Of a stretch of DNA of 64,000 bases, positions 36,601-52,744 are shown piece after piece. The position numbers and the translations under genes were made by a program. Numbering within the stretch: position 1 is the stretch's first letter; each line of letters opens with the position of its first letter. The notes beneath the pieces were generated by a model. The model did not search any database and was not told the DNA's origin. It saw only the letters and a program-made list of their open reading frames with translations. Origin of the DNA: Nitrosopumilus sp. (GTDB lineage: Archaea > Thermoproteota > Nitrososphaeria > Nitrososphaerales > Nitrosopumilaceae); NCBI GenBank assembly GCA_965238275.1, contig OZ250186.1:1024001-1088000 (forward strand), written 5' to 3'.

Positions 36601-38502
36601 TGTGAACGGAGTTCCAATCGTTATGGTTGGAATGATGTGGGATGCGGCTGTAACCGAGAGGTTGTCTTCGTTGAGTGAGTTGGTGTTGGCGTCACTGTCT
36701 GTCAGCGTTATGCCGATGTTCTCGCCAGAGTTCCATTCGTCTCCTGCGTCGATCACGATGTTGGTCTCGCCGAAGCCTATGGAGGATGTCGTGGTGTTGT
36801 CATATGTGACTGAAAATGACAGTCCCCTGTCGGCCCCTGTGGTGGTGCGTATGTTTGGCGTGTCGCCTGGTGCGTTGGTGAATACTGAGTCGTTTGAGCT
36901 ATCCTCGCTGAATTCTATCAAGAATTCGCCGGTGCTGCTTACGCTACAGGATTCAACACACTCTACCAAAGCGACGTTGCCGTTGTTGTTTGTGGAGAGG
37001 CTAAAGCCTTCGTCGGTTGAAACCTTGATTCCGCCACCATCCACATCTGCATCGATTGTAGGTGCAGCAGCGACAGCATCAGTATGGGCCTGAGTTGCGG
37101 TCGCAAGGTCAGCGGTGTATTCTGTATGTGCAGAACCTTCTACGTTGCCACCTGGGCCGTCTCCTGCGATTACCTCGTAGGCTACCTGTGCGGTACCCTT
37201 GTAGGCAACACTAGTGATCTCAGTTTCTGTCTTGTCTCCATTAACTGTGGCGTAGTTTGCATCAGCTATACCACTTGCAACAGTGGCATCATCAGTACCA
37301 GAAGGATAGGTAAATCCATTGTCCGAACCATAGTGAGTATTAAGATCGTCGTCGACAGCACTTACATATCCTGATGGAGCCACGGTGATGTCACCGATTG
37401 GTTGGAATCCGGCGATTACCTCGTATTCTATCTGTGCGATGCCCTTGTAATCGGCTACCTGCACAGCAGTAGGAGGATCGTCAAAGTCGATGGTTTTGTC
37501 TCCAAGGATTGATTGTGCGCGTGCCGCTTGTTCCAAGGGTACGGTGGGGTCGTCAACGACCTCATTGGCCCTCGTAATGAGAAGGTCTCTCTTATCAACT
37601 GCAGCAGCAATGGCAGTAGCCGGAACTGCTGCGGCGATCTTGGCGTCTCTGTCTGTTACGGCTTCAGCGATCTTGGTGTCTCTGTCTGTTACGGCCTTGG
37701 CATTGGCGGTCGTTCTGTCTGCTCCGGCCATAGCTAGGGCTTCAGCGTTAGCAGCAGTGCTTGAAACAGATGCCGGAATACCTCTGTAGTATGAGGTTCC
37801 ATCACTGCCCAAGTACCAAACATCGTCAGATGTTGGGTCCACGTTGAGTGCCAAGTCGTCAAGCGTGATGATCACGCCTGTACCTTGCGGGTATAGCGAC
37901 CTGTCGAGGCTTGCGCTCTCAGACGGATCGTCAAGATCCAAGACTACCGTCTGAGGGTTTGCCGGTTTCTCGTAAACTATGTCGAATGTGCCGTCGTCCA
38001 GGTTAAGGACTTGGACGAGTTGGGCAGGTGCATTATCAGTTGCAAAGGCAGGTTCGCCCATGACAAGGTTATTAATAGCTGTCTGTTCTGCTTCTGTGAT
38101 TTCAGCATCACCGTCACCATCAACAGTTTCAGTACCACTGACGATACCATCCATATCCGTCTCAAGCTGGACAATTAAGCCAGTGTTTTGGATGCCTGCG
38201 GATGCAATGTATGCATACCATGCGCCAGAGAAGAAGGCCATTTCAATGTCAGCGCCGTCAACGGTCACCCGAAGTTCATCACCTGACTCGTTTACGTCGC
38301 CGTCAGAAACCACGATCTCTACGATGTTGGTAGTGGCAATCACGTTGCCCGTGTTTAGTAGCTCAGCTGAAACCGCCAAGTGTGGGTTGCTTAATCCTGC
38401 TGCGTGTGCCGGCTCCATGCCGGGTATGGCAAACGTGAGTCCGCCTGCCACCATAATCGTCATCAGTGCTATGCTTGTAAGTTTTCGTAAGTTGTTGTTT
38501 AT
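33667..38502 (-). CDS. S-layer protein paralog B, intact (about 1600 aa)
   Basis: Same signal peptide and C-terminus as A; very acidic; first ATG at 38463, frame extends to an ATA at 38502. Confidence 0.92.
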   Translation of the reverse strand: MNNNLRKLTSIALMTIMVAGGLTFAIPGMEPAHAAGLSNPHLAVSAELLNTGNVIATTNIVEIVVSDGDVNESGDELRVTVDGADIEMAFFSGAWYAYIASAGIQNTGLIVQLETDMDGIVSGTETVDGDGDAEITEAEQTAINNLVMGEPAFATDNAPAQLVQVLNLDDGTFDIVYEKPANPQTVVLDLDDPSESASLDRSLYPQGTGVIITLDDLALNVDPTSDDVWYLGSDGTSYYRGIPASVSSTAANAEALAMAGADRTTANAKAVTDRDTKIAEAVTDRDAKIAAAVPATAIAAAVDKRDLLITRANEVVDDPTVPLEQAARAQSILGDKTIDFDDPPTAVQVADYKGIAQIEYEVIAGFQPIGDITVAPSGYVSAVDDDLNTHYGSDNGFTYPSGTDDATVASGIADANYATVNGDKTETEITSVAYKGTAQVAYEVIAGDGPGGNVEGSAHTEYTADLATATQAHTDAVAAAPTIDADVDGGGIKVSTDEGFSLSTNNNGNVALVECVESCSVSSTGEFLIEFSEDSSNDSVFTNAPGDTPNIRTTTGADRGLSFSVTYDNTTTSSIGFGETNIVIDAGDEWNSGENIGITLTDSDANTNSLNEDNLSVTAASHIIPTITIGTPFTLGGDDNGRVAASSSGSAEGTLVIPDGTFEGVHMLNYDVSALGSGASVSINGIGVTVDRDGRDLVDVTGHIGSDNTVNIRYSGTASDGMIVIDVFSFGLIDGTDNVNNAIYRLELEEKSDNSSDFTGTLEYIGLNQVNILDATTYAAIQAIDVDIILISDDDSVSVDYLDKDANGQDTLFTAEADTPTHSGAVSLDSDGYKVADTVTVTVEDADLNVDSGKPDVYTTIASDIVGAETSNEDIGELLSVSIDGNQWAAGCTDMTGLDATDFTLKETGDATGVFTGTFAVPADYCHPNGKSAGVTGADISVEYIDFRDDSGSTITVSDSAGIRSNTGSVSLDRTVYPVPIGIVTEAEDDTAFETFGADLLQHDLTVYVSISDSDFDTSSNGIDSTDPGVLEISIIRGSETLKWTVEDAIDETAPNSGVFEHTETISYNTGPDSSDCPPGLDGCIVQGDILHVQYTDPSDASGSLNTVTDSATFDLRNGVLQVDRPGTTGYVIGSDMIVTLIEQDLNLDSDATETYTLDLIEWDSDAGTCSLKSTGCTTDPFGATPSNLLETGTDTGIFQVVITVPPEIDDEALQRGEEITLTYNDWGPSGSDYVGDKDEEITAVAYTSDFGASIELDQKVYTWTDKVYITIVAPDHNFDADQVDEIGGQDADYPINIKTQEAEIEGYKLVETGADTGIFSGELILTGVEHDDLDRETKDSSGYGPTDGQLAAEDSDGLAVVFENSDGDIVRASAIIQWNVGEVEWLEASYPALGSGIVRVIDPDMNLNPEAVDNFDVNVWSDSDVGGISLTVTETNAATGIFEGTVFFDDSSISSGHRLNVEEGDTVVAEYDDVTSPIEDETSVSATTLIGTIVPPLERAPINNLRAVDTFDNSIGAASVGQQVVITADLSNGQDRDQKFIFLIQVQDENGVTVSLNWVLGTLAAGQSFSPGASWTPTEAGTYDVTAFVWESIDNPTALSPTATIALTVN

Positions 38503-38699: not shown

Positions 38700-38975
38700 G
38701 GTGGATGAGGAGGAATACGGCGTATCTTCATTGATAGATCAAGGATTTGCAGCAGGCAAGGCATTCACTGCATCTTTCTGTTCTGCATCATACAATGCAT
38801 CAAAGTAAAACTTGTTGATCTCCATGGTTTCAAGTTTTTTTCTTCACATAGCTTTCGCTTAAAGTGGGAGTGTTCAGATCCACAAACACTTCCAATTCCA
38901 AACTTGGCTGGTTGAACAGTGCGATGTTCTCTGTCGCCTTCCACATCTGATAACCCAGACGATTCAGAACACGTA
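38700..38975 (-). pseudogene. Small gene remnant cut by IS630, HicA-like pattern
   Basis: Manual translation IRVLNRLGYQMWKATENIALF...VFVDLNTPTLSESYVKKK. Confidence 0.35.
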
Positions 38976-40243
38976 TACCAGCAATGAAAAATTCATATCA
39001 AAATCGCTCATAAATTTTTGATGCAACAGCCGTCTCTGGAAATTACGAGGTACGTTGAATTCCCAAATGACGAGAAAAGACGCTCCAAACATTAGACATT
39101 GCATGCTCTGGTGCGCCGTGCATGGCACACGCTAGGCGGCGTGGGTCCGGTGTGGTTTGATGTCGTTCTAGATGGCCCTGTACAGAAAGTTTTCAACGAC
39201 CAGATTCGGTTTTTTGTACCTCGTGTACCTGGTGATCGCCTCGCGGAGCATGCGCAGGCTGGTGTACTGCACGTCAAGCACTGCCCGTTTGAGATCCCTC
39301 CAGTACGTCTCTATGGCGCTCAGGTCCGGGGTTGCAGTCGGCAGGAAGACTATCTCCAGGCCGTCTGTGCCATCAAGCAGTTTGCGTATGTTTGATGCCC
39401 TGTGCTGGGAGGCCTTGTCCATGATCAGGCAGATCTTCTTGAACCTGTACATCGCCTGCCTTAGAAAGTCCTCAAAGGTGTCCTTGGTAAACGCATCGTA
39501 CTGCCGGAACATTCCCCTGCCGTCCGTGGTGATCAGGCCGTAGAGTATCGTCTTGGAGTGTGAGCCGGTGTACGTGAAAAACGCCCGTATTCCCTTCCTG
39601 GTGTAGCCGCGTCTTCGCGGCCGCGCATCGGAGATTACTATGGACTCGTCCTGTATCGCTACGACTGTTCCTTCACTGTTCTTTTTTTATAAGATCCGGC
39701 ATCTCTTTTTGGAATTTCCTGATCTCCTCGTCAGGTGCCCTTGCATGTTTTCCTACGGGAACCTTCTGGGAGTAGCCCCAGCTCCGCAGCATGTACCGCA
39801 CGTGCGTGAGGTTGTACTTTACCCCCGTCTTCTGCCTGATGTATTCCCGCATCTCCCTGCCCGTCCAGATCAGCTTACTGCGCGCGTTTTTCCGAATCCG
39901 CCCCATGTCTGCCCTGCTTACCTTGGTCGGCCTGCCGGAGCGCGGAAGGTTTCCCAGCCTGTCAAAGCCGACTTCCCGATAGCGTTTGTGCCACTTGCAG
40001 CCCCACGCCGGCGACTTGCCAAGGGATTTTGCAGCATCGCTCATGGCTGCTCCATCGCGCTTGATCATGATTATCAGCATCATGCGATCCTTGACATTGC
40101 AGTCTTTCTCAGCGGCGTATCTTTTCAACATCGTCTTGATCTTCATTGACTATGTGATTCGGGATGAGCATAGAACTGCATGCGAAAAAAATCTTTTACA
40201 ATCGTATGAAATATTTTTATTCACGGATTTATGTTCCGCGGTA
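38976..40243 (-). mobile_element. IS630-family element, copy 1 (transposase 39168-40146 in two frames)
   Basis: TA-flanked end TACCAGCAATGAAAAATT; RSGRP, MDKASQH, P.ATPDLSAIE; A-run at the frame change. Confidence 0.88.
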
Positions 40244-40430
40244 TACAACAACACGTCCCGGGAGGCATTGGAGTTTGCAGCATACGCAAAGGCCACGTAC
40301 GGCCAGTGCAAAGCAGTCTGCGAATCCACCGGAAACCACTGGATAAAGACTGTAGATGCCTTTGAATCTGCCGAGATCCCGCTGATGCTTGCCAACCCGT
40401 TCAAGATCAAGGCAATAGCAGGGGCCAGCA
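40244..40430 (+). pseudogene. IS110-family transposase fragment
   Basis: AVCESTGNHW...LMLANPFKIKAIA. Confidence 0.75.
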
Positions 40431-40706: not shown

Positions 40707-41753
40707 TCAATTCTGGGAAGACTGCATAAGGTTACTGTTTTTGTACATTTCTATGGGAGTCTTGTAGATGGAGTTAATTTTTCTAAACACTTCTTTGTAA
40801 CAATCCAAATTGTTCGCACGTAGAGTTGCGTAGCATATCAAAATCCATCCAATCTGTTTCCAATATTCATCATCAAACCGATCCACCTTTTCTAAAAACT
40901 GACTGAAATCCACCTTCGGTGATGACATCACGGTTGTCCTGACAAACGCCTCAAGCTCATTCACTTTTCCTAATGCCAAATCTATGTCGTCGGAAGGCAT
41001 TGGACACATGCAGCAAGAGTTCGTTCTATCCTTTAATACTTTGTCAACCAATTCTCTGTCGTTCTCGTAAAAATGACAGCTTCCGCAGAAATGGTAATAA
41101 TTCCCCAACTCAAGCTCCAGTTTTGACTCCAGCACCGCCTTTACGTATTCCTGTAGCATCGTAAAGAGAAACACGTCATACGGAAATAACCTAAATGCAT
41201 TCTGACTCCGCATGTACGTTATTGCATGAAGTTTTTTATCTCTGATCAGGTACTGCAGATTCAACGTACATGGAACCTCATCTGCTAGCTGGTGTTGGTC
41301 AAATTGAGGTAGGTAGACTGACGCCACGGCCCTGCGCTTATTGTGGTCCGTGCTCAAAACATTTATCGCATGCTGGATCTGATTCATATGCTGTATTCCG
41401 AAGAGTCGAGGTCCGTATGCGCCAATCATGCGCGACCCGTCGGATGAATGCCTGTCCGATGATGGGGCGTAATATGTAATTTCTTTTGTATTGAAGCTTC
41501 CGCGATACGTCCAGAGAAACTGTCCCACAAGCTGAAAGATGTTTGGAGTGTATTCCTTTACTGTCACTATGCGCGACAGAGGATCCTTCATCTCAAATTT
41601 GTAGGATATGATTTCTTGATAATCTGGTTTGCATTTATGGCATGAAAGATGTTCGGACACGTTGTTCGAACATGTATGTTTTTCACACCTGCGCGATACG
41701 GGCTTCCCGTCTTTTATGATGTCATTGAGTAGTCGTTTCCACTCCGTTATCAT
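40707..41753 (-). CDS. Thymidylate-synthase-fold protein, (d)CMP hydroxymethylase-like
   Basis: GAYGPRL, RRAV, VPCT, MRSQN, PYDVF (Asp at the ThyA Asn site), GSCHFY. Confidence 0.85.
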   Translation of the reverse strand: MITEWKRLLNDIIKDGKPVSRRCEKHTCSNNVSEHLSCHKCKPDYQEIISYKFEMKDPLSRIVTVKEYTPNIFQLVGQFLWTYRGSFNTKEITYYAPSSDRHSSDGSRMIGAYGPRLFGIQHMNQIQHAINVLSTDHNKRRAVASVYLPQFDQHQLADEVPCTLNLQYLIRDKKLHAITYMRSQNAFRLFPYDVFLFTMLQEYVKAVLESKLELELGNYYHFCGSCHFYENDRELVDKVLKDRTNSCCMCPMPSDDIDLALGKVNELEAFVRTTVMSSPKVDFSQFLEKVDRFDDEYWKQIGWILICYATLRANNLDCYKEVFRKINSIYKTPIEMYKNSNLMQSSQN

Positions 41754-43497
41754 CGGGCACTCCTCTTCCGAAGAACTGCTTTTTTTGCAGTTCTCCTATG
41801 ACGTCAATTACCAAACGTGTATGGAAACGTTTCACACCAAACGACATATCGTCTATCAGATTGTCTATGATCTCAGGTAACGGACGCTTGGAATAATTTT
41901 TCTTCCACAGATATATCAGTGACGCGGCAACCTCCAGCCATTTTGGGTCATCGAGATTGGCTTTGAGTGCTTGCTTAAATTCTCGAATCTTTGTCTCTGC
42001 GCCTTCGGATAACGCTGACGGTTCGGGTTCAAATGTGTGTCCGTAGGCATCTTTGGTCACTTCCTTACAGTAAGGCCCGTGTATGTATACCAGCAATGAA
42101 AAATTCATATCAAAATCGCTCATAAATTTTTGATGCAACAGCCGTCTCTGGAAATTACGAGGTGCGTTGAATTCCCAAATGACGAGAAAAGACGCCCCGA
42201 ACATTAGACATTGCATGCTCTGGTGCGCCGTGCATGGCACACGCTAGGCGGCGTGGGTCCGGTGCGGTTTGATGTCGTTCTAGATGGCCCTGTACAGAAA
42301 GTTTTCAACGACCAGATTCGGTTTTTTGTACCTCGTGTACCTGGTGATCGCCTCGCGGAGCATGCTCAGGCTGGTGTACGGCACGTCAAGCACTGCCCGC
42401 TTGAGATCCCTCCAGTACGTCTCTATGGCGCTCAGGTCCGGGGTTGCAGTTGGCAGGAAGACTATCTCCAGGCCGTCTGTGCCATCAAGCAGTTTGCGTA
42501 TGTTTGATGCCCTGTGCTGGGAGGCCTTGTCCATGATCAGGCAGATCTTCTTGAACCTGTACATCGTCTGCCTTAGAAAGTCCTCAAAGGTGTCCTTGGT
42601 AAACGCATCGTACTGCCGGAACATGCCCCTGCCGTCCGTGGTGATCAGTCCGTGGATTATCGTCTTGGAGTGCGAGCCGGTGTACGTGAAAAACGCCCGT
42701 ATTCCCTTCCTGGTGTAGCCGCGTCTTCGCGGCCGCGCATCGGAGATTACTATGGACTCGTCCTGTATCGCTACGACTGTTCCTTCGCTGTTCTTTTTTT
42801 TATAAGCTCTGGCATCTCTTTTTGGAATTTCCTGATCTCCTCGTCAGGCGCCCTTCTTGCATGTTTTCCTACGGGAACCTTCTGGGAATAGCCCCACCCG
42901 CGCAGTATCTGGCGCACATATCCGAGTTCGTACCTTACTCCGGTCTTCTGTTGGATGTATTGCTGCATCTCCATGCCCGTCCAGACAGGTTTCCTGCATG
43001 CGGCCTTTCTGATCTTCTTCATGTCTGCCTTGCTCGCCTTGGTCGGCCTGCCGGAACGCGGCATGTTTCCCAGCCTGTCAAATCCGACTTCCAGGTAGCG
43101 CTCGTGCCACTTGTAGCCCCACGAGGCTGACTTTCCCAGGGATTTTGCAGAATCCCTCATGGTTATCCCGTCACGTTTGACTCTGATGATCAGCATCATG
43201 CGGTCCTTGGTATCGCAGTCTGTCTCAGCGGCGTATCTTTTCAACATCGTCTTGATCTTCATTGACTATGCTACGTGAAATAAGCATAATTTCACATGGA
43301 GTTAAAATATTTTACAATCACATCAATTTTTCATCTTTGGTATACCAACTGTATGTATAACCAAGGTCTACGCCATATTCTTGCAACAGGTATATGGTCT
43401 TCTGAATCTTTAGCCGATCATCGAACTCGTCAACAACAACAATTTTCTCTTTATCCATACATTTAAACACGTCTGCGACTGCTTTGCGTTCAGGCAT
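41722..43497 (-). pseudogene. YwgA/Panacea-like protein (172 aa reconstructed) interrupted by IS630 copy 2
   Basis: Joining at the TA gives RLKIQKTIYLLQEYGVDLGYTYSWYIHGPYC...WLEVAASLIYL. Confidence 0.75.
42088..43342 (-). mobile_element. IS630-family element, copy 2 (transposase 42280-43262)
   Basis: TIRs TACCAGCAATGAAAAATT / TACCAAAGATGAAAAATT, TA duplication; 3' part nearly identical to copy 1. Confidence 0.92.
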
Positions 43498-43522
43498 GCA
43501 TCTTGTAGTTATGCCATAGTTA

Positions 43523-45290
43523 GTAATTGTTTCGCTTTTTGAAGTGCCCGAATGACCTAGCGGTCATCCATGGCGCTGGGAAGAAATCTAATAATTTCGT
43601 GCTCGGGACGACAAAGTTAGATCATCATGATCCAAGTATGAGTGGGTGTTAGTCCCTTCGATTACCACAATGAAGGAACCAACACACCAAACATGCTTGG
43701 AGGCGGAGGAATTTAAGGCAATGCACGAACCCTCCTCCTCCTCCTCGCCCCAAATCTCGCCAGACGCCGGGGCGTGCATGGAACCCGGATGCAGGTGCTG
43801 CCGGCACTGGGCCAAGATGTTCGGCTCCATGATCGTCCATACTCGCAAGATCCTGGAGACAGTCTGCGAGATTGCAGGCGAGTCAGACGCAGGCCGGAAG
43901 GAGATCGGGGGCCTGCAGGCGCTCGCCTCATCCCTCACGGAGGACAACAAGAGGTACGCCAAGGCAAACAGGGAGCTCAACGTCAAGGCAAACAAGATCA
44001 GCGTACCTGCGGCCAAGAAAAAGGCCGGCCCGAGAAAGGCCGGCAGGCCCAAGGGGCAGAAGCCCACCGTCAACTGCAGGCCAGAACGCGTGGACCGCGT
44101 GGAGGAGATCGACTGCAAAGAGTGCCCCGACTGTGGCGGCGGACTCTCGGGGGCGGTGACTGCCGAGTACGACCGCATGGTCACAGTCATGCGCGTCATC
44201 TCAGAGAACGTCAGGTATGTCATCAAGCGGCGCTGGTGCCGCGGGTGCAAAAAACAGGTCTCCGGGAGGGTCCCGGGCGCGGCAAAACACGCGCGCCGTT
44301 CGTCAAACTTTGATGCTGCCATGACGTCCCTGAACATGGGCGGCATGTCGCATGCCAGGGCCGCAGAATTTGGCAGTGACGCGTTAAAGCATGAAATCTC
44401 GCGCTCGTCTGCCTACCGCGGCAAGATCGAGCAGGCCGGGCGCATGGCACCGGAGCGTGATTCCGTGAAAGAACGCGTGCTGGAGGCGCCGCACCTGAAC
44501 GCAGACGAGTTCCACTTGCCGCTGGCCGGCAAGCGCGGCTACGGGATAGTGGCCCTGGCAAAAAACCACTGCCTCGTGAAGGTGGCCGGCTCGCGAAACA
44601 TCAAGACGCTCTGCCAAACGCTCCCGGACTACCGGGGAACCATAACGCAGGACTCGTATCCCGGGTGGCTCCACGTGGGATCGTGCCGCCAGATGTGCGT
44701 GTGGCACCAAGAGCGCCTGGTGCAAAAGGATCTCCTGACCAACCCCGGGGGCGACGTCCCGGCGTTCCTGGGCAGGCTGTCGGCAATCCACAAGAAGATC
44801 TATCGCGCCTCCAGAATCAGGGACGGTCACTCAAGGATCGTCGCGGCCCGCTGCATAGACTCCGAGCTGCGCGAGCTGATGAGCGAACAGTTTACAGACG
44901 ACAGACACGGCATCATCACCCGGCACAAGAAGAGGAACCCCCGGGAGGGATACTTTATGACCACCTGCCTGCACGTGGACGGCGTCAATCCCGACAACAA
45001 CTCAGTCGAGAGGGTCAACCGGAGGTTCGTGGCCATAAGGAGTGACGGGGGCGGAAACCGCTCCCAGAAGGGCATGGATGCCAACTCGATCCTGTTCACG
45101 CTGCTGGCAACGGACAGGATCAACGGGAACAGCTTCTTTGATCACCTGATTCGCTCGTCCTCCGGATACGGGTGACGCGCAATCCTACGACGCGCGCAGC
45201 GCATCACGGGGGGAAAAATTCCACGGTAAAAGGGGAAGACTGCACGCGCTCCACTGTCAGGCAGGTCACTTCAAAAAGCGAAACAATTAC
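43523..45290 (+). mobile_element. Intact IS66-family element
   Basis: Perfect 24-bp TIR GTAATTGTTTCGCTTTTTGAAGTG; TSD CATAGTTA at 43515-43522 and 45291-45298. Confidence 0.95.
43646..45175 (+). CDS. IS66-like DDE transposase
   Basis: Zn finger, ADEFH, QDSY, DNNSVERVNR. Confidence 0.9.
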   Translation: MLVPSITTMKEPTHQTCLEAEEFKAMHEPSSSSSPQISPDAGACMEPGCRCCRHWAKMFGSMIVHTRKILETVCEIAGESDAGRKEIGGLQALASSLTEDNKRYAKANRELNVKANKISVPAAKKKAGPRKAGRPKGQKPTVNCRPERVDRVEEIDCKECPDCGGGLSGAVTAEYDRMVTVMRVISENVRYVIKRRWCRGCKKQVSGRVPGAAKHARRSSNFDAAMTSLNMGGMSHARAAEFGSDALKHEISRSSAYRGKIEQAGRMAPERDSVKERVLEAPHLNADEFHLPLAGKRGYGIVALAKNHCLVKVAGSRNIKTLCQTLPDYRGTITQDSYPGWLHVGSCRQMCVWHQERLVQKDLLTNPGGDVPAFLGRLSAIHKKIYRASRIRDGHSRIVAARCIDSELRELMSEQFTDDRHGIITRHKKRNPREGYFMTTCLHVDGVNPDNNSVERVNRRFVAIRSDGGGNRSQKGMDANSILFTLLATDRINGNSFFDHLIRSSSGYG

Positions 45291-45323
45291 CATAGTTATA
45301 TGTTCTACCGTCGTCACTAACGC

Positions 45324-45842
45324 GTGAGAACTCTTCCGGATCATGTGAGGCCTGGTTTGACTGCCGTATTTGTGGGAACCAATCCGGGTTTGCGATCGGC
45401 ACGGATTGGTCACTACTTTGCTGGAAGAAACAATATGTTCTGGAAGCTTTTATACGAGGCCGGATTTACCAGAAAGCGTCTTTCCACAGAATCTGACTCT
45501 ACTATGCTTGACTATGGATACGGTCTTACTGACGTGGTGAAAAAACCGACACGTTCCACCACGAACCTAAAGGGTAGAGACGGCGACGGCGCCAAGGCGC
45601 GTCTGGATGCAATAATCTGCAAAAACGAGCCAAAAGCCGTGGTGTTTGTCGGCAAGACCGGCTTCCGGTTTTATACTAGCAACAAGGATCCGCTACACTA
45701 CGGCGCACAGAACCTAAAGATCGAAAACTCAGATGTGTTTCTAATGCCGTCTACTAGCGGAGCCAGTTTTGCAGACACCAAATATGACGAAAAGCTTTAC
45801 TGGTACTGCAAGCTACGGCGCTCCATTGACAATTATGCTTAG
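45324..45842 (+). CDS. mug: Mismatch-specific uracil/thymine DNA glycosylase (MUG/TDG, UDG family 2)
   Basis: FVGTNPG, GHYFAG.NN.FWKLL, GLTD, MPSTSG. Confidence 0.92.
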   Translation: MRTLPDHVRPGLTAVFVGTNPGLRSARIGHYFAGRNNMFWKLLYEAGFTRKRLSTESDSTMLDYGYGLTDVVKKPTRSTTNLKGRDGDGAKARLDAIICKNEPKAVVFVGKTGFRFYTSNKDPLHYGAQNLKIENSDVFLMPSTSGASFADTKYDEKLYWYCKLRRSIDNYA

Positions 45843-46121
45843 TCGCGGCCATAGCAATTTGAACACCTGCCAGCCATTAATCCAGAAAATCCCATCGATG
45901 AGTCCTCAGAATGGTCTCAAAAATGATTTACAAGAACACGTTATTTCCTGACATTGCAGCATAATAGAACACATGTATAATCCACCCATTTTGTTGGTTT
46001 GGGCCATAAAACCGAAAAAATACGGTTTAATGTTGATCATGCCAAGCACACGGCGAACTTATTCATCCCAAAATCCAAAACAACATGCGCAGTCTTGCAG
46101 CACTTCATCGTGCCCTGAATT

Positions 46122-47438
46122 CTACTTGACCGGAGCTTGGGAGCAGGCCCTGTCCCAGTCTACTGACGTCTTCCACTGCCCCGGTGGTGGCGGGCCCTTT
46201 TCCATGCAGTCCCACAAAAGGTTCAGGTTTACCAGCCCTGTGATCACGTTGAACTCCCTGTTGAACCCGGCTGCGTTGCCGTCGTACGGGTCGGTGAGGC
46301 GCGCGTAGCGCTTGAGCCTGCCTATCGTGTGCTCCACCAACACCCGGGTGGAGTTGATCCCGTGGTTGTGCTTTTTTTGCTCCGGCGTCAGCGGCGTGTC
46401 CCTGGTCTTCTTGTGCGGGATCTCCGGCGTGGTGCCGGGCAGGTGGTCTGCGATTCCCTGGTAGCCGCGGTCGACGAATGGGTGGCACCTGTCTGATTCT
46501 GGCAGGTCCGGATCGTGCATCGCCTTCTCCCACTTTCCAAACGGCATGGGGCGTTCCTTGAGCAGCGTGATGTCGCCGACTGACCCGACGGTGCTTTTTG
46601 ATATGCCGATCACCACCCCGTTCCGGTTGGTGTACACGTTGGTATTGTTGGTAAACTTTTTCTTCTTGCCGGAGTATTTCATGCGCCGGACTGACTTTAC
46701 GGACGGGCGCTGTATGGGGCAGTGCGTGCCGTCTATGAAGATCTCGCCCCCATCCGATCCGGGCACGATCTTCTTGAAATCCTCCTTGGTCGGGGCAGCA
46801 GCTACCTCCTCGGATATGTTGTCTGCCGTCGGAAGTATTCCTGTCAGCATCGCATCCATCACCGGAATGTACCGGGACACGGTGGTCTGGTCTATCCCGA
46901 AGAATGCGGCAAGCACGCCTTGGGCGGGGTTGTCCTTTTTGCGGATAAGTGCTAGGAGCAGTGCGTGCCTCAGGTGCAGCTTGCACCGGTTTCCGGGATC
47001 GGAGGCCCGGGATGCGTTATCGCAGAACAGCGGCATCTGGCCCGAATGCGTCAGAAACACCTTGGCCCGCTCCAGCATGTACCGGAACTGTTCCCCGTCT
47101 GCCAGCGTGGCATGGCGGAGCTTGTCCCCGTCGCGTATTATGTCGTCTAGCACCTCTAGCAGGTGCAACGCTGGCCCCTTGCCGGGGTTCCAGCCATCGT
47201 CCCTGCTCTTCCACAGGCCGCGCTCAAGGCCCAGCTCCCTGTCTTTCTGCTCCAGCTTTTTGTCTTTCTGCTTTAGAATATTTTTTAGGGTTTTGTCTTT
47301 CTGTTCCAGCTTTTTGTCTTTCTGTTCCAGCTTTTTGTCTTTCTGTTCCAGCTTTTTGTCTTTCTGCTTTAGAATATTTTTTAGGCTTCTGTTTTCCTGT
47401 TCCAATCTGTGCATGATCTGATCAGGCGAGTCTGGCAT
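46122..47438 (-). mobile_element. IS5-family (ISL2/Harbinger-like DDE) transposase with N-terminal QKDKKLE heptad repeats
   Basis: FGIDQTTVSR, IDGT, YSGKKK, DRGYQG, RVLVEHTIGRLK. Confidence 0.88.
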
Positions 47439-47492: not shown

Positions 47493-47810
47493 TTACGCAT
47501 ATTTTCTAATCGCGTAAATATCTCCCAATCTCACGCCGCCGTTATCGTTGCCTTTCTGAGCCTTCGCCTTGTAGAAACGCCTGCTATCACCTTCCCCATA
47601 CTGGATCAAATACGTGATGGGATCATCGGGATCGTGTATCTTTTGGTGGCAACTGTAATGCACGTAACAACACTTCTCTGGAAAGTACGTCACGTGGTGT
47701 ACTATCAACCTGTATTCTCTTTCAGGCGGCCCGAAGCACACGATGCACATGTCTTTGGTGTTCATGTATTCCCGCATTTCAACATCATATGCGTAGAAAT
47801 GGTACATAAG
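47493..47810 (-). CDS. Small HNH/His-Me-finger-like protein
   Basis: CIVC...HHVTY...VHYSCHQKIH; start uncertain. Confidence 0.55.
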   Translation of the reverse strand, partial: LMYHFYAYDVEMREYMNTKDMCIVCFGPPEREYRLIVHHVTYFPEKCCYVHYSCHQKIHDPDDPITYLIQYGEGDSRRFYKAKAQKGNDNGGVRLGDIYAIRKYA

Positions 47811-47862
47811 GCGTTCATGTTGCCAGCAACGCCGCTGCAAAGCAGACAAACAACAAGATCCT

Positions 47863-49530
47863 ATGCAGAATGTGCCTGACGTGGCAAATCATAAAATCAT
47901 GTCAGAACTGCGCTAGCCGTGGCCATATTTGAAAATCTCGTCTGCCGTATATTTTACAAATTTGTCTTGCACGTCCATGTGAAAAATCCAGTTTCCAGTA
48001 TTGGAAAATAAGGCACGTTCTGTGGATGTGCGGCATCCGTCCCCGGGGCGGCAGGTTGTTTCATGGGGAATGGTGGGGGAATTTGCACAAATATTGGATG
48101 CCGTGCGCGACATTCCTGCACTGCCTGATGCCACCTGCCTTTCACTCCGTCAGGCGGCTCGTGCCGCCCTGTCTCAGAGGCGCGCCCTTTTTTCGGCCAG
48201 CCTTTTGAGAAGGTCCGCGTCCCTGAGTTTTATTTCGTCCCACATCAGATCCTGGTTTACCATTCCCGCAATCGCGTTGAGCTCGTCGTTGTACTCCTCC
48301 TCGGTGCCGTCGTACGGGTCAGTCAGCCTCTTGTACTGTTTCAGGCTTCCGATAACGTGCTCTATGGCCACGCGGGAGCTGTTTACCCTCTTGTTGTAGG
48401 CGCGCTGCTTCTTTGTCAGGCCGCCGGTCTTTTTGTCGGCTCCACGCTTTTTCTTGTGCGGGTGCCTGATGTGCCATCCGGGATATTCCTCTCTTGTCCC
48501 TTGGTAGCCCTTGTCCATCAGGACGTCAGGCTTTTCTTTTTCGGGCACGTCCTTCTGGCCCATCCTTGCCGTAATGATTCCAAGGTTTGGCGGATCCTCG
48601 TTGAGCAGGGTCTTGTCGTGGACGCTGCCCGGAACGGTCTTGCTTATCGCCACTATCACGCGGCGCTTGTTGATCACGATGTTGGTATTGTACGTGTGCG
48701 CCTTCTTCTTGCCAGAGTACGTCCTTTTGCGTCTCTCCTTGTCCGCGGACCTTCTGACCCGGTTGTGCGTGCCGTCCACCATCAGTTCTCCTCCCCTCCT
48801 GCCGGGTATTATCTTCTTGCTCTCCTCGAGTGTCTTGGCCTTTTGTACAGCCTCGCTGATTTTGCGCGGCGCCGTGCCTGTCTCGCCGAGCAGCCTGGTC
48901 ATCAACGGGAGATACCTGGAGACGGTGGCCTGGTCGACGCCAAACATCGCGGCAAGGGCTTCCTGCGGCATGCTCAGCCTTGTCCGAAACAGCCACAGCA
49001 GGTACGCGTGCCTCAGGGGCAGGATGCGCCTGCTCCCGGAGTTTTTCGATCTGTTCTCGATTTCCCGGAAGAGCGCAGTCTCCCCGTTCCGCTCCAAAAG
49101 ATCCTCGAGGCGGTGCAGCGTGTGGCCAAACTTTTCCGGGGTGCGCAGCGTCATGGCGTGCAGGAATTCAGGATATTTTATGATGTCGTCGAGAAACCTC
49201 GACGTGACGGTCCAGTGATCAGTCAGGCGTTCCTCGAGGGCCTCGCTCTTCTGCCGGTCTGTCCTGCGTGCTTCCCTGAGGGCCCTGATCCTCTGCCGGC
49301 AGGATTCATCCGACTCCCTGAGCGCCTCGTTTTCCTGCCGTAATCTCTGCACCGTTGGATCGACTAGCATTGCCATCACGGTGTGGCGTAAAAATCACCG
49401 ATCTTAACGTTTCGGTTATCCTTCTTGGATTGGCATGCTTTACGATTCTGTGGATATTCGGCCGCATGTGGTGCCGCACGTGGGAATAACCCAATTTAAT
49501 TCAGTTTTTTAAATCAGGCACATTCTGCAT
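47863..49530 (-). mobile_element. IS5-family (ISL2-like) element, transposase 48174-49379
   Basis: 17-bp perfect TIR ATGCAGAATGTGCCTGA; VDGT, DKGYQG, RVAIEH. Confidence 0.9.
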
Positions 49531-49604: not shown

Positions 49605-50815
49605 GGCGTTGTCCAAATCTTAGTTCTACAGACCCATTTGCTGTTCATTTACACACACTTTATTGGTTATGATTCCGTTAATTTGGAGGGATTTTCTGTG
49701 TCCGAAGCATAGCAGAATACATCGGGTGCCAGAACCGTGCCTGGAAGCATAGCACACGCTAGACACATGGCATGCATTCTTGCACCATGACATCACGACA
49801 GCAGGTTGTAACAGATGCACCTGAGCAATAACTGCAGCCTTTGGGTCGGCAGCGTCTTTGCTTGGACCACTGCGGTGAACCTGCACTTGAACGACGAGAA
49901 CACCGACTCTACTATGCTGCGGCGGTGGTACGTCGTTTCAAACTCTTCGGGGTTCTTTTCCTGCCACCTGATCATCTCTGCCCTCGGGCCGAATCCCTTT
50001 GCGACGTGGTTCTTGCGGGTGCATATGACCGGCTTCCTGCCCGCATCGCGGATCATCTTGTAGTTTTTGACTGCATCATACCCTGTATCAAGCATCACGC
50101 ACCCCGTGCCGTCCGGAACCTTCCCGAACATCTCCCTGAATACGGGAGAGTCGTGCGCGCGTCCCCTGGTGACTGCGCAGGAGACGATCTTTCTTCCCTT
50201 GACATCAGTCACCACATGCAGCTTGACGAATTCGCGTCTGGAGATGAGGCCCCTTTTGGCATCCTCCCAGTCTGCGTACTGGTTGATGGCGACCCCCGTG
50301 GAGTCTCCTAGGAGGGAACCGCGCGCGTAGGATCCTGCCTGCCGTTCTATTGTTTCGTGCAGCCAGTCATAATCTGCGATTATGGCAGATACATGGTGCA
50401 GGCAGGATTTTGATGGAACGGTTTTTAATCCATACATGTGCAACGTTCCCTGATGTGTCTGCAGGTATGAGACATGTTGACGGTATGAATGGCAGCGGAA
50501 CTCCCGGTCTGCAAGGCATACCATGTATGGGATCATACGCACATTGCCAGAAGTGGCAAGCGGGTAGATCTCAAGCAGCAGGGCGGTGAGGGCCTTGATC
50601 CGTAATCTGGTTGTGTGGCCTTCACCCCTTCTCCTTGTCTCGTATTCCTTGTAGTATCCGGCAGGACGTTCCCATTTCTTGGCGTCGGTGCTCTTGCTTT
50701 TGCATCGTTTCTTGCTCTTGCCGTGCTTCGTGTTTGTATCACGTTTTTTGTTCATTAAGCGGCGCGCGATCTTTAAGCTTTTCGTTGATTTTCGGTTCAA
50801 AGTTTGGACAACGCC
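49605..50815 (-). mobile_element. IS5-family (IS903-like) element, transposase 49793-50800
   Basis: TIR GGCGTTGTCCAAA; 9-bp TSD CCGGTTGGG; DSTG, KLH, DTGYD, YHRRSIVES. Confidence 0.93.
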
Positions 50816-51220: not shown

Positions 51221-52744
51221 TTACTTTTGCAAATCAATCATCGCTTTCTTGCACCGTTCCTGGAAGGCGCGCATCCTGTCTCTCTCTGTCAGGGAATCCA
51301 GTAACTGTTCCCGCAGGCGTTCTATCTCCTGCTCGGCATTGTAGAGCCTGACCCGCAGGGTCTGGACGTCGTCACCATCATCATTCCGGTCAAGGGCGTG
51401 TCCTGAATTGGTCAGGACGTTGATCCTGCTTGATGCCTTTGCATACTCCCGGCGCAGCGTATCCGGGTATAGGGCGGGTTTTTCATACGAGTCCTTTGGC
51501 TTGTGCCCGAGGATAAAGTCGGCCACGTACTGCGCGCACCCGCAGTCCATCAGGGTAGTCTTTAGCAGGTCCCGGAGCTCATGCGCCCGTATCTTGTACG
51601 TATTCCTCGACGTTTTTTTCTGCAGCCCGGCGGCGACGGCCAGCTTGCCCATGCTTACTGATACCCACGTGCTCTTGATGGGCCTGCCCAGCTTGTTGAG
51701 GAACAGCGGGCCGTTGGCATCAAAACCCCCGTACTCCCGGACGCGCCAGTCAAGGTAGTTCCGTATTGCGGTAATGGCATCCCTGTCCAGAAATGTGATA
51801 AACTGCACCCCGGTCTTCATCCGCACCAGCTTGATTGGGACGGGGCACCTGCCTGGATCCCATTTGGCGTGGTCTGTTGACCCGAAATGCCTGGATATCT
51901 GGGAATAAGCCTCAAAGTTGAACCTGTCTGCAAGGGTGGACGAGTCCAGCCCGGCCTGGAACTTTACCAGCATGACTGCGTTCAGCATGACAGACGGCCG
52001 TCCCCGTGTCAGCATCTGGCACCATTCATGCAGCGTCAGCCTGCTGTCTTCTTTTGTCTCCTGGGTCTCGTGGCGCTTGGGGTCGTATTTCATTCCCACC
52101 GGGGACTCGTTCTTGGCAAAATACGACATGATGGCGCAAAATATGTTGTTCATGGTGCTTGGGCTCGACCCCCCGTGTATCGGGTCGTTGAGGTACGTCC
52201 TGATGATTCTTATGACTACCTTCCCGGGTATGGTGGAGTTATCAAACATGGTCAGGAGCTGCTCGACGTTTTCGAGCCTGGTCTCGAGGATTCGCTCCTC
52301 CAGCGTCCGGTCACCCGTCTTGACGTTCCGTCTGATAGTAAAGGATTGGCCGGGTAGCCATTGGTTAAATCTGGCAAGGTTATACACGTACAGGGTGCGG
52401 GTGCTGTTGCTGCTTGACGGCATTGATATGTTCCTGTACCGGTTCCCGCGCAGTTGGCTTGTCCAGTATTTCACGCTTTGGAGGTCGTCCAGCCGGGACA
52501 TTTTTTGGGACTTGATTTTTTTGATTATGCCGCGTTTCTGCGCAATGATGGCGGCCCGGTAGTGGTAGTTGACAAACGCAACAGTCGAGCACGACTTGGG
52601 CTTGTTGGGCATGTTCCTCCTGATTATGTCGATTATGACGAAATGCGTTCCGACATCCTTGAACTTGGATACTATGCTCGCAAATCTTTTGGGCACCCCG
52701 ATCAGCTTGTCCGGCGTGGGATCATGGCATACCACGTATTGCAT
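51221..52744 (-). CDS. Tyrosine recombinase/integrase with C-terminal coiled coil
   Basis: R.KTG, HELR, LGH...SY; true start probably downstream (about 52612 or 52501). Confidence 0.85.
   Translation of the reverse strand: MQYVVCHDPTPDKLIGVPKRFASIVSKFKDVGTHFVIIDIIRRNMPNKPKSCSTVAFVNYHYRAAIIAQKRGIIKKIKSQKMSRLDDLQSVKYWTSQLRGNRYRNISMPSSSNSTRTLYVYNLARFNQWLPGQSFTIRRNVKTGDRTLEERILETRLENVEQLLTMFDNSTIPGKVVIRIIRTYLNDPIHGGSSPSTMNNIFCAIMSYFAKNESPVGMKYDPKRHETQETKEDSRLTLHEWCQMLTRGRPSVMLNAVMLVKFQAGLDSSTLADRFNFEAYSQISRHFGSTDHAKWDPGRCPVPIKLVRMKTGVQFITFLDRDAITAIRNYLDWRVREYGGFDANGPLFLNKLGRPIKSTWVSVSMGKLAVAAGLQKKTSRNTYKIRAHELRDLLKTTLMDCGCAQYVADFILGHKPKDSYEKPALYPDTLRREYAKASSRINVLTNSGHALDRNDDGDDVQTLRVRLYNAEQEIERLREQLLDSLTERDRMRAFQERCKKAMIDLQK

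Follow-up and report, generated by a model that had tools for sequence, protein, structure and literature searches.

A disrupted cassette of a thymidylate synthase-like gene, a predicted antitoxin-fold gene and a MUG-type glycosylase gene in Nitrosopumilus: a possible toxin-antitoxin or defence module

Organization of the locus

The window is a stretch of 64,000 nucleotides from Nitrosopumilus sp. (contig OZ250186.1, positions 1,024,001 to 1,088,000). All the open reading frames listed in an earlier note on this DNA were found where the note had placed them. The thymidylate synthase (TS)-like gene lies on the minus strand (40707..41753) and is an intact open reading frame of 348 amino acids. 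The YwgA-like gene, on the same strand, is present as two pieces: an N-terminal part of 51 amino acids plus TA (43343..43497, with the ATG at 43497) and a C-terminal part of 121 amino acids (41722..42087), the 3' end of which overlaps the start of the TS-like gene by 32 nt. On the plus strand, 45324..45842 codes for a MUG/TDG family-2 DNA glycosylase of 172 amino acids, which is the upstream-type paralogue, MUG-1.

The YwgA-like gene is split by an IS630-family element with a frameshifted transposase (42088..43342, minus strand; Pfam DDE_3, HTH_32 and HTH_33; transposase open reading frames at 42280-42624 and 42771-43262). The element has terminal inverted repeats of 24 nt (42085-42108 and 43322-43345, 83% complementary) and is flanked by a TA duplication at 42086-42087 and 43343-43344. 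A second copy, with 92% identity, is present in the window at about 38975-40245. When 42088-43342 and one TA are removed from the sequence, both pieces of the YwgA-like gene are fused in frame, and in a tblastn comparison they match adjacent coordinates, with no gap, in 8/8 intact homologous loci.

The YwgA-like gene and the divergent MUG gene are held apart by an IS66-family element (43523..45290, plus strand; Pfam DDE_Tnp_IS66, E 1.7e-12; transposase open reading frame at 43646-45175) with inverted repeats of 27 nt (43523-43549 and 45264-45290, 96%). The direct repeat CCATAGTTA flanks the element at 43514-43522 and 45290-45298. The first C of this repeat overlaps the inverted repeat, and the target duplication is therefore the 8-bp sequence CATAGTTA, one copy of which (43515-43522) lies in the left half of the divergent intergenic, or promoter, region (43498..43522) and the other (45291-45298) in its right half (45291..45323). 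Excision of IS66 in silico leaves 50 bp between the ATG at 43497 and the GTG at 45324.

A natural empty site exists. Both insertions are missing, exactly at these joints, from a publicly available contig of a related strain: this contig (run X7, 1626 nt) covers 41233-42085, then 43343-43513, then 45290-45894, and skips 1257 bases at IS630 and 1776 at IS66, the shorter side of each joint being 171 letters long. A second run, X1, contains a weaker joint without IS630, the shorter side of which is 28 letters. The two-gene operon and the 50-bp divergent spacing, which had been deduced earlier by removing the two elements from the sequence, thus occur as a real allele. In line with the supposition that the copy in this genome is inactivated, it is disrupted by both insertions, and the module would be off in this genome. 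IS630 would break an antitoxin-like gene and IS66 would interrupt the divergent promoter region. Neither the downstream MUG paralogue nor the DNPH1-like hydrolase described below is encoded in the window's copy of the cassette. The TS-like open reading frame is intact here despite the broken putative antitoxin gene, so that a toxin role for its product fits only if the operon is silent.

The TS-like enzyme

The TS-like protein matches PF00303 over residues 50-245 (59 bits, cut-off 24.3; E 5.4e-16). Its best match in the PDB is MilA, the CMP 5-hydroxymethylase of the mildiomycin pathway (E 2e-30, residues 47-246); the matches to ThyA and T4 dCH have E values of 1e-9 and 1e-5. The protein has a Cys/His-rich insert at about residues 23-41. 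Sequence similarity to T4 gp42 and RB69 gp48 is low, and, compared with these, the protein has an additional conserved region of about 100 amino acids at its C terminus.

The catalytic PC and the PYD motif, which had been pointed out in the earlier note, are P161-C162 and P191-Y192-D193. The key residues are Q78, R140/R141, E159, C162, S183, N185, D193, H227 and Y229. P161-C162, R140/R141, H227 and Y229 align with C155, K133/R134, H216 and Y218 of MilA, which places the protein in the superfamily; the Arg pair serves to bind the phosphate, and the Cys nucleophile and the His/Tyr pair for the sugar (its 3'-OH) are shared with MilA. D193 aligns with Asp186 of MilA and with the Asn of ThyA. Conservation was scored in 69 close homologues. 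C162, D193, R140, H227, Y229 and E159 are each kept in all 69 and S183 in 68; at position 141, 49 have Arg and 20 have Lys.

The residues that distinguish ThyA, Asn177 for uracil and the hydrophobic Leu143, are replaced by Asp193 and Glu159 in the window. Asp in place of Asn177, together with an acidic residue three positions ahead of the Cys, is a signature of dCMP and CMP hydroxymethylases (PMC6400193, PMC13326640), which is shared with MilA and, as N177D and L143D/E, with T4 gp42 and RB69 gp48. The Arg140/Ser183 pair is also of the type found in the two phage enzymes. Such a pair marks a 2'-deoxyribose substrate (PMC5175136), and the corresponding Lys133/Ala176 of MilA sets that enzyme apart, so that a deoxy- rather than a ribonucleotide is predicted for the TS-like enzyme. 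We infer from these residues that the enzyme binds dCMP, using the Asp for cytosine, the Arg/Ser pair for 2'-deoxyribose and the Cys as nucleophile, and that it adds an oxygen-bearing group at C5. It is, by prediction, a dCMP C5-hydroxylase or hydroxymethylase.

Part of the hydroxymethylase signature differs in the window, which has Gly111-Ala-Tyr113 at the place of Ser/Thr-x-Tyr and Asn185 at the place of the Asp at EcTS position 169 (Asp178 in MilA). D193, E159 and N185 together make up the triad N177D, L143D/E and D169N of the 5-hydroxy-dCMP synthases, for which D169N has been proposed to be diagnostic (PMC13326640). RB69 gp48 has the same MRSQN segment in the alignment, with Asn at the D169 position. 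Asn is also present in 17/69 homologues, and Asp in 52/69. A further trait of the RB69 gp48 type is O2-dependent hydroxylation with a flavin cofactor. As the window enzyme has the D169N signature, its product may be 5-hydroxy-dCMP, not 5-hydroxymethyl-dCMP; the predicted product of most relatives is 5-hydroxymethyl-dCMP. The modified cytosine nucleotide proposed earlier agrees with the Asp/dCMP-type residues, and in the window variant it may be the 5-hydroxy form.

The Glu at EcTS Glu58, T4 Glu60 and MilA Glu68 is conserved and critical, and activates methylene-THF (PMC6400193). The window has Q78 at this position; of the 69 homologues, 45 have Gln there, 21 His and one Thr, and none has Glu. 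This replacement throughout the family makes the chemistry of the enzyme uncertain. RB69 gp48 and T4 gp42 both keep the Glu, and the D169N analogy with RB69 gp48 is for this reason incomplete.

The YwgA-like protein

The fold model of an intact YwgA-like homologue has a pLDDT of 92. In a structural search its sole strong match is 7yk3_D, the DarG chain of the DarTG complex (Z 11.1, rmsd 3.3 A, 143/161 residues), and the next best match has a Z of 4.7. Foldseek (probability 0.99, E 0.058) and a sequence profile (E 0.16) also point to this DarG chain. DUF4065 proteins are homologous to the DarG inhibitor domain (PMC13621843). Three full-length YwgA-like homologues match no Pfam family at E <= 1, including Panacea (PF13274); the nearest named Atlas cluster carries SocA_Panacea (score 0.82), which is a lead only. 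Judged by the model, the protein has the antitoxin fold of the DarG C-terminal/Panacea type. The gene that had been called YwgA-like is present and conserved, and its product is better described by this fold than by that name.

The complex of the TS-like and YwgA-like proteins was predicted for the intact pair of locus L012. The ipSAE of 0.56, against 0.01 for the best control, gives the pairing weak support; predictions that pass in this score range are wrong more often than right if the pairing was not already likely. The runs share at least 86% of the contacts, and the pLDDT of the partner is at least 86.

MUG glycosylases and the DNPH1-like hydrolase

The MUG protein of the window matches PF03167 (E 1e-16) and NF007570 (98.8 bits, E 2.7e-28); with a cut-off of 144 bits for the latter, it is a member of the family and not an equivalog of E. 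coli Mug. Its PDB matches are E. coli Mug (E 6e-22) and TDG (E 5e-19). The GTNPG segment aligns with GINPG of E. coli Mug and human TDG, and the catalytic Asn is kept. In the tree, the protein belongs to the 'upstream' clade. In the downstream, convergent paralogue the catalytic Asn is mostly replaced by Ser (Ser in 19, Arg in one and Asn in three of 23 readable relatives).

The NDT-like protein encoded at related loci matches PF05014 (E 7e-13 and 7e-11). Among proteins of solved structure it is closest to DNPH1/Rcl, the 5-hydroxymethyl-dUMP N-hydrolase (E 2e-6); the E value for CMP N-glycosidase is 0.04. PSIGVGMEI of this protein aligns with PSLGVGYEL of DNPH1, in keeping with the NDT fold, and we take the Ser and Glu of the segment to be the phosphate-binding and the catalytic residue, respectively.

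Distribution and neighbourhood of the cassette

Among 28 non-redundant related loci in which the cassette was surveyed, 21 could be assessed for the YwgA-like gene, which is directly upstream of the TS-like gene in 20 of them. The partner that most consistently accompanies the TS-like gene is the convergent MUG paralogue downstream of it (25/25); the other MUG, upstream, is present in 14/17. A gene for the DNPH1-like dNMP N-hydrolase occurs in 11/20 loci and a MazG-like gene, a lead only, in 2/28. The distant bacterial locus L058 contains TS-like and MUG genes without a YwgA-like gene. The earlier note described a module of three genes. The three families are indeed tightly linked in the related loci, contrary to the absence of co-occurrence elsewhere that the note had named as refuting its idea, and the module is larger than had been thought, with a constant second MUG paralogue and, in about half of the loci, the DNPH1-like gene.

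The TS-like gene is present in 5/301 sampled genomes of the family Nitrosopumilaceae and in 0/36 congeners. MUG genes are found in 7/301, and in all 5 TS-positive genomes a MUG gene adjoins the TS-like gene. One genome has two copies of the cassette (L006 and L011). Decay is seen elsewhere too: the TS-like gene is frameshifted at L013 and the second MUG gene at L010, and G140 has a remnant. The neighbours include HsdM and an integrase (L046), Mrr_N (L042) and HEPN_Swt1 (L051 and L006), and the surroundings are generally rich in integrases, IS elements, R-M and HEPN genes. In the window, the region of 38.5-64 kb is dense in IS elements and contains an integrase. The mobile, defence-island-type context suspected earlier is thus borne out by the sporadic occurrence in the family and by these surroundings. 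No PADLOC model matches the TS-like, YwgA-like or MUG genes.

Proposed function and alternatives

The window would contain a degraded copy of a rare, horizontally mobile cassette of four to five genes, which is sporadic in the Nitrosopumilaceae, and the best reading, although unproven, is that the cassette is a toxin-antitoxin or defence module, inactivated here. We give this explanation as a whole a probability of about one half. Its core would be a translationally linked pair, a small protein of the DarG C-terminal/Panacea fold followed by the TS-fold enzyme. The enzyme would be the effector, or toxin, diverting or poisoning the pool of dC nucleotides, and the YwgA-like protein would keep it inactive through direct binding. 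The surrounding genes, two MUG/TDG paralogues, often a DNPH1-like hydrolase and rarely a MazG-like protein, would remove the modified base from the cell. By processing the product of the enzyme, the hydrolase and the glycosylases might either protect host DNA or convert the incorporated base to abasic sites in the replicating DNA of an invader. A dNMP kinase is missing from the cassette, and it must therefore be assumed that the product enters DNA.

The family names argue for a housekeeping role, in which an alternative thymidylate synthase and a mismatch repair enzyme are neighbours by chance: Pfam and NCBIfam call the proteins thymidylate synthase and G/U mismatch glycosylase. Such a housekeeping role is scarcely credible, as the uracil-specifying Asn has given way to Asp and Leu143 to Glu, the NCBIfam scores fall well short of the equivalog cut-offs (e.g. 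69.1 versus 174.55 bits), and the TS-like gene is missing from nearly all of the family genomes sampled. The genome also has ThyX, as had been expected from its relatives, and no other PF00303 gene. The defence-island-type neighbours and the near restriction of MUG genes to cassette-bearing genomes fit a module for sanitation directed against viruses, in which the MUGs would act, like Brig, on viral DNA with 5-hydroxymethyl- or 5-hydroxy-pyrimidines and the DNPH1-like and MazG-like proteins would destroy the modified nucleotides of the virus. UDG-superfamily glycosylases that excise 5hmC or glucosyl-5hmC provide phage defence (PMC13160076), and the best match of the NDT-like protein is a hydrolase of 5-hydroxymethyl-dUMP. 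The TS-like/YwgA-like pair would then be accessory, serving in sensing or pool rebalancing, and not a toxin. This leaves the most conserved gene pair without a role, does not account for the strong conservation of the TS-like active site or for the toxin-binding antitoxin fold modelled for the YwgA-like protein, and makes the sanitation module unlikely.

That MilA is the closest solved relative and that an NDT-fold N-glycosidase gene so often lies next to the TS-like gene suggest a small-molecule pathway of the MilA/MilB or BcmA/BcmB kind, in which the enzyme would modify a cytosine nucleotide and an N-glycosidase, NDT-like or even of the MUG fold, would free the modified base for a metabolite or antimetabolite. 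The MilA-MilB logic is published (PMC4081090, PMC5175136). The Arg/Ser pair predicts dCMP, however, and not CMP (PMC5175136); the NDT-like protein fits DNPH1 far better than CMP N-glycosidase, genes for tailoring, kinase or export functions are not conserved around the cassette, the partners that it regularly keeps are DNA glycosylases bearing MUG/TDG motifs, and it occurs sporadically, amid many mobile elements. We regard such a pathway as quite unlikely. An integrated virus or mobile element whose own DNA has a substitute for C, in the style of T4 or RB69, with glycosylases that attack unmodified or differently modified competitor DNA, is very unlikely. The characterised enzymes with these signatures in PMC13326640 and PMC6400193 are all viral, integrases are nearby, and two copies occur in one genome. 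Against this, the cassette has neither a dNMP kinase nor a glycosyltransferase, and the MazG-like lead is all that could stand for a dCTPase-type enzyme; the scan of neighbours, which covered only ~20, revealed no capsid, terminase or replication genes; and a scan of IMG/VR yielded just 2 distant relatives of the TS-like protein (34% identity), which lack the partner genes.

Comparison with known systems

The toxin-antitoxin or defence reading resembles known systems in its parts. The logic is likened to that of DarTG, also in its role in defence. If the fold model is right, the YwgA-like protein shares the fold of the toxin-binding C-terminal domain of DarG, and in both systems an effector that alters DNA or its precursors would be neutralised both by binding and by enzymes that remove the modification. 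The effector of DarTG is an ADP-ribosyltransferase and its remover a fused macrodomain, whereas the cassette would use a TS-fold nucleotide enzyme and separate MUG and DNPH1-like genes. With Panacea (DUF4065, PanA) the cassette shares the layout of a small antitoxin-fold gene directly upstream of a variable partner gene; it differs in that PF13274 is unmatched, and the term 'thymidylate synthase' does not occur in the main text of the two Panacea papers.

The system of MilA and its N-glycosidase MilB differs from the archaeal cassette, which is partnered by DNA glycosylases and an antitoxin-like protein and lies in no antibiotic gene cluster. In contrast to the genes of T4 gp42 and RB69 gp48, the TS-like gene belongs to a cellular chromosome and has neither a kinase nor a glycosyltransferase gene next to it. 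Brig1 and Brig3 are likewise defence-island glycosylases of the UDG superfamily and excise C5-modified cytosines (PMC13160076). The cassette glycosylases, by comparison, are clear MUG/TDG family-2 members, fall into two paralogues, each tied to its position, of which one has Ser for the catalytic Asn, and are linked to a gene predicted to make, not merely meet, modified cytosine. In human cells, DNPH1 paired with SMUG1 handles 5-hydroxymethyl-dUMP. The cassette similarly joins a DNPH1-like hydrolase with UDG-superfamily excision for the same base class; the human modified nucleotide arises from DNA turnover, whereas the cassette encodes a dedicated predicted synthase.

Implications

The pairing of a predicted maker of oxidised cytosine with an antitoxin-like partner and base-removing enzymes is a combination that is not known from the literature and looks like an immune or addiction module. 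A bolder version, which is rather unlikely, is an archaeal immune or addiction module that would 'make, incorporate and excise'. The TS-fold enzyme would synthesise an oxidised dC nucleotide, 5-hydroxy-dCMP in the window variant and 5-hydroxymethyl-dCMP in others, by a new catalytic arrangement without Glu58. The DarG-like domain would restrain the enzyme, and on its release the modified base would enter the replicating DNA of the invader, where two MUG paralogues, one with a site rebuilt from Asn to Ser, would yield abasic sites, while the DNPH1-like hydrolase would clean the host pool. If this were true, the enzyme would be the first of its kind outside viruses and the cassette a prokaryotic counterpart of APOBEC/UNG-type restriction.

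The disrupted locus and its insertions

The locus in the window contains a thymidylate-synthase-fold (TS-like) gene of 348 aa (40707-41753, minus strand; Pfam Thymidylat_synt), the small YwgA-like gene, recognized from ORF positions as two pieces (41722-42087 and 43343-43497, minus strand), and a gene of the UDG superfamily encoding a MUG/TDG DNA glycosylase (MUG) of 172 aa (45324-45842, plus strand; Pfam UDG). Two transposase elements lie between them, and the ORF positions read in the earlier note were all borne out. The IS630-like element (Pfam DDE_3/HTH) occupies 42088-43342 and has inverted repeats of 24 nt at 42085-42108 and 43322-43345. The IS66 element (Pfam DDE_Tnp_IS66) occupies 43523-45290, has inverted repeats of 27 nt at 43523-43549 and 45264-45290, and is bordered at both ends by the repeated CATAGTTA. 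The IS630-like element has a second copy of 92% identity at a distance of about 3 kb (38975-40245), whose transposase is clearly more diverged in its N-terminal (HTH) half than in its DDE half.

When 42088-43342 is cut out together with one TA, the two YwgA-like pieces are joined in frame, and in 8/8 intact relatives both pieces match adjacent coordinates without a gap. With the IS66 element excised in silico, the ATG at 43497 and the mug GTG at 45324 are 50 bp apart. One 1626-nt contig of a close relative, from the public sequencing run X7, matches 41233-42085, then 43343-43513, then 45290-45894. Since neither insertion is present in it, at precisely these joints, it serves as a natural control for the removal of both elements. 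A weaker joint without the IS630-like element is present in run X1. The earlier proposals of a two-gene operon hidden by the insertions and of its 50-bp spacing from the glycosylase gene are thereby upheld. In runs X1-X3 and X7 the summed contig depth over the IS630/IS66 stretches (42016-45378) is several-fold to about 100-fold that of unique cassette DNA, which indicates many copies of both elements in those four samples.

The TS-like and MUG ORFs of the window are still intact. No remnant of a downstream MUG or of the NDT-like gene of relatives was found within the window (tblastn, E <= 10), which is the sole locus with downstream sequence but without a downstream MUG. In this genome the module is, very probably, silent: insertions break up both the antitoxin-like gene and the divergent promoter region, and the locus has lost two genes of the cassette.

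Composition of the cassette

Homologous loci were found by pattern scans with alignment of TS-like homologues, which gave 8 loci from species genomes titled Nitrosopumilus, Nitrosarchaeum or Nitrosopumilaceae and 26 metagenome loci. Viral contigs contributed just two distant TS-like loci (34% identity), beside which no cassette partners were found, and the phage collection held no TS-like match above 36% identity. In total 28 loci were kept and scored by tblastn. Left out of the count were L047 and L050, apparent duplicates of L010 and L012; L021-L038, from the same genomes fetched again, among which L032 and L033 are MUG-only loci of genomes G140 and G289 without a TS-like gene; and L005, L014, L015, L060, L061, L063 and L064, which have distant TS-like genes (about 25-35% identity) and no partners.

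The three families that the earlier note had grouped together do co-occur. The YwgA-like gene is directly upstream of the TS-like gene in 20 of the 21 loci with enough upstream sequence, a convergent MUG gene is directly downstream in 25/25 loci with downstream sequence, and a second MUG gene is found upstream in 14 of 17. In 11 of 20 loci the upstream MUG and the YwgA-like gene have a small Nuc_deoxyrib_tr gene (PF05014), the NDT-like gene, between them. The idea of a three-gene module is thus right in linking the families but too narrow, the cassette being enlarged by the second MUG, the NDT-like gene and, in two loci, a possible MazG-like gene. The last is an extra gene of 338-366 aa between the NDT-like and YwgA-like genes (L046:3678-4778 and L048:2703-3719). 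Neither Pfam nor PDB gave a match for it; the nearest clusters in the Atlas (score 0.89) place it near MazG-type NTP pyrophosphohydrolases, which is a lead only.

The exception among the upstream genes is L058, which is without a YwgA-like gene and has a TS-like protein of 33% identity. L058 and L059 are metagenome contigs of high GC, in which a distant TS-like gene (33-34% identity to the L012 reference) is followed by a convergent MUG of the Asn type. This pairing suggests that the TS-like/MUG pair is the older core and that it is found outside archaea too.

The TS-fold enzyme

The best solved relatives of the TS-like protein are structures of the CMP hydroxymethylase MilA (E 2e-30); ThyA entries begin at E 1e-9 and T4 dCMP hydroxymethylase is at E 1e-5. 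The five closest homologues (P0002-P0006) are 61-68% identical, and the wider MilA-like radiation comprises 6317 matches at E <= 0.001. The window residues C162, D193 and H227/Y229 correspond to the MilA nucleophile Cys155, the cytosine determinant Asp186 (Asn in uracil enzymes) and His216/Tyr218, which contact the sugar hydroxyl. R140 and S183, a deoxy-type pair, replace MilA Lys133 and Ala176. These roles agree with the passages on MilA residues in PMC5175136, where A176S/K133R turns MilA from CMP to dCMP and deoxy-specific enzymes carry Arg and Ser. From R140, S183 and these switch data, dCMP is the predicted substrate. Specificity for cytosine and deoxyribose is well supported by the sequence.

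Two further positions concern the product. E159 is an acidic residue three before the Cys, where ThyA has Leu143; passages of PMC6400193 and PMC13326640 tie an acidic residue here to non-methyl products. Asn185 is at the position of ThyA Asp169, inside an MRSQN segment common to RB69 gp48. The relevant part of PMC13326640 proposes D169N as diagnostic and reports that 5-hydroxy-dCMP was made in all nine further TS homologues tested with Asn at this position. Of 69 close homologues, 52 have Asp and 17 have Asn here; of the 28 loci, 8 have Asn, 19 have Asp and one is unreadable, and no link of the variant to cassette composition was seen in these 28. Whatever the cofactor and the details of the chemistry, the C5 product is likely to be oxygenated.

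The enzyme also departs from its family elsewhere. Glu58, called conserved and critical for methylene-THF activation in the passage concerned of PMC6400193, is never Glu in the close clade (Gln 45, His 21, Thr 1). The loss was considered as a hallmark of flavin-type enzymes, an idea rejected because RB69 gp48 keeps Glu58, as do T4 gp42 and RB69 td. Gly-Ala-Tyr stands where a Ser/Thr-x-Tyr element is expected. Residues ~23-41 form a Cys/His-rich insert (CxxH ... CxxC), shared with the five closest homologues and not with the rest of the family, which may be a zinc knuckle.

The glycosylases and accessory proteins

The window MUG aligns to E. coli Mug at E 6e-22 and to human TDG at E 5e-19, and its GTNPG motif contains the catalytic Asn. 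This Asn is kept by the upstream paralogue in 14/14 loci. Of the 23 readable copies of the downstream paralogue, 19 have Ser, 3 have Asn and 1 has Arg, and alignment to TDG places the Ser at the Asn140 position. A maximum-likelihood tree splits the two positional classes with branch support 100/100 and groups the single Asn-bearing MUGs of two bacterial-looking loci with the upstream type. PMC13160076 describes members of the UDG superfamily that remove 5hmC and act in phage defense; by analogy, activity of the MUG proteins on C5-oxygenated cytosines is plausible.

The best solved relatives of the NDT-like protein are DNPH1/Rcl (E 2e-6), annotated as 2'-deoxynucleoside 5'-phosphate N-hydrolase and 5-hydroxymethyl-dUMP N-hydrolase. 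The match to a CMP N-glycosidase entry is far poorer (E 0.04), so by sequence the protein resembles a dNMP hydrolase that acts on a modified pyrimidine nucleotide.

Neither the fragments nor full-length homologues of the YwgA-like protein gave anything significant in Pfam, NCBIfam, PADLOC or PHROGs. Its sole source name is the JGI label 'uncharacterized protein YwgA' on one homologue, and the literature searched held no relevant paper on 'YwgA'. A model built from a 29-sequence alignment (pLDDT 92, pTM 0.89) was compared with 48,161 representative chains by VIA, which decided the assignment: a single chain matches strongly in structure, DarG of the M. tuberculosis DarTG complex (Z 11.1, rmsd 3.3 A over 143 residues; runner-up Z 4.7). 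Foldseek and a sequence profile independently found the same DarG chain with weak E-values; Foldseek against PDB gave no match at E <= 0.001, the best being 7yk3_B at E 0.058. DUF4065 (Panacea) proteins are homologous to the DarG inhibitor domain, as stated in the relevant passage of PMC13621843. The predicted complex of the intact L012 pair scored 0.56, and the highest of three controls 0.01. This is classed as weak support; contact agreement across runs is at least 86% and partner pLDDT at least 86.

Distribution, decay and mobile surroundings

The cassette is accessory and, as the earlier note had supposed, mobile. By alignment-based search the TS-like protein occurs in 5/301 genomes of the family, and it was not found in 36 congeneric genomes. 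MUG occurs in 7/301 family genomes, among them all five TS-positive ones, where it is always adjacent. One genome has two cassette copies (L006 and L011). Among the neighboring genes, L046 has a type I R-M methylase and an integrase, L042 an Mrr_N protein, L051 and L006 Swt1-like HEPN proteins and L058 DUF3644. Decay is frequent, with a TS frameshift in L013 and a downstream-MUG frameshift in L010. In L032 (G140:C2:835355-838801) a YwgA-like gene follows an upstream-type MUG that carries a frameshift; no TS-like gene was found in G140 at E <= 1e-20, and the locus looks like a decayed cassette.

In the window the cassette is placed in an IS-saturated island. The stretch 38.5-64 kb contains two IS630 copies, IS66, several DDE_Tnp_1/DDE_Tnp_4 transposases, a tyrosine recombinase, an rve integrase and IS605 OrfB; three of the DDE_Tnp_1/DDE_Tnp_4 genes and the last three make up a run at 46122-47438, 48174-49379, 49793-50800, 51221-52744, 55218-56276 and 62609-63874. 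A Cys/His-rich ORF of 118 aa (47493-47849, minus strand), flanked by two DDE_Tnp_4 genes, matches no Pfam, NCBIfam or PADLOC family. Immediately upstream of the island lies an Asp/Thr/Ser-rich ORF of 1598 aa with a signal-like N-terminus (33667-38463, minus strand), probably a surface protein. The only other route to dTMP in this genome is ThyX, encoded outside the window (G000:C1:1663016-1664356) with two Thy1 domain matches within one 555-aa open frame; it looks tandem-fused.

Proposed function

The YwgA-like antitoxin fold could bind the TS-like enzyme, and the remaining genes could remove the modified pyrimidine: the MazG-like and DNPH1-like proteins would have the nucleotide pool as their target and the MUG paralogues DNA, and the glycosylases might either shield the host or, once the base is incorporated, damage invader DNA. 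In DarTG a DNA-modifying toxin is opposed by a binding domain and a modification-reversing enzyme. The cassette, known here from its genes, likewise pairs a putative binder with putative removers of the product. This make-up and the DarTG parallel put at the head of the ranking a toxin-antitoxin or defense module with the TS-fold enzyme as effector, to which we assign a probability of about 0.5.

The same genes could be read in other ways. A virus-directed sanitation module is the best of these, though improbable, and a free-base pathway like that of MilA and MilB is slightly less likely. That the cassette serves self-modification of a mobile element is a little more doubtful still, and a housekeeping role is very improbable. 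The toxin-antitoxin or defense reading is followed in classing the cassette as an antitoxin-controlled, DNA-chemistry-based conflict module with several unusual enzyme features. Its parts are all from known families and their combination is new to PADLOC and the literature searched: none of the PADLOC models covers the TS-like gene, the YwgA-like gene or MUG, and no description of the cassette was found in the main texts searched.

The natural Asp/Asn pairs at the proposed switch between 5-hydroxy and 5-hydroxymethyl products pose a direct mechanistic question, as do a clade without the 'invariant' Glu58 and a MUG paralogue whose catalytic Asn is Ser. The glycosylases are possible tools for modified-cytosine mapping. 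Ammonia-oxidizing archaea are globally important and, to our knowledge, little is known of their immunity. If the toxin-antitoxin or defense reading is true, a TS-fold nucleotide-modifying enzyme would join the toxin and defense effectors as a new class, and phage-type C5-cytosine nucleotide synthases, antiviral UDG-superfamily glycosylases and DarG/Panacea antitoxin domains, hitherto separate, would be linked.
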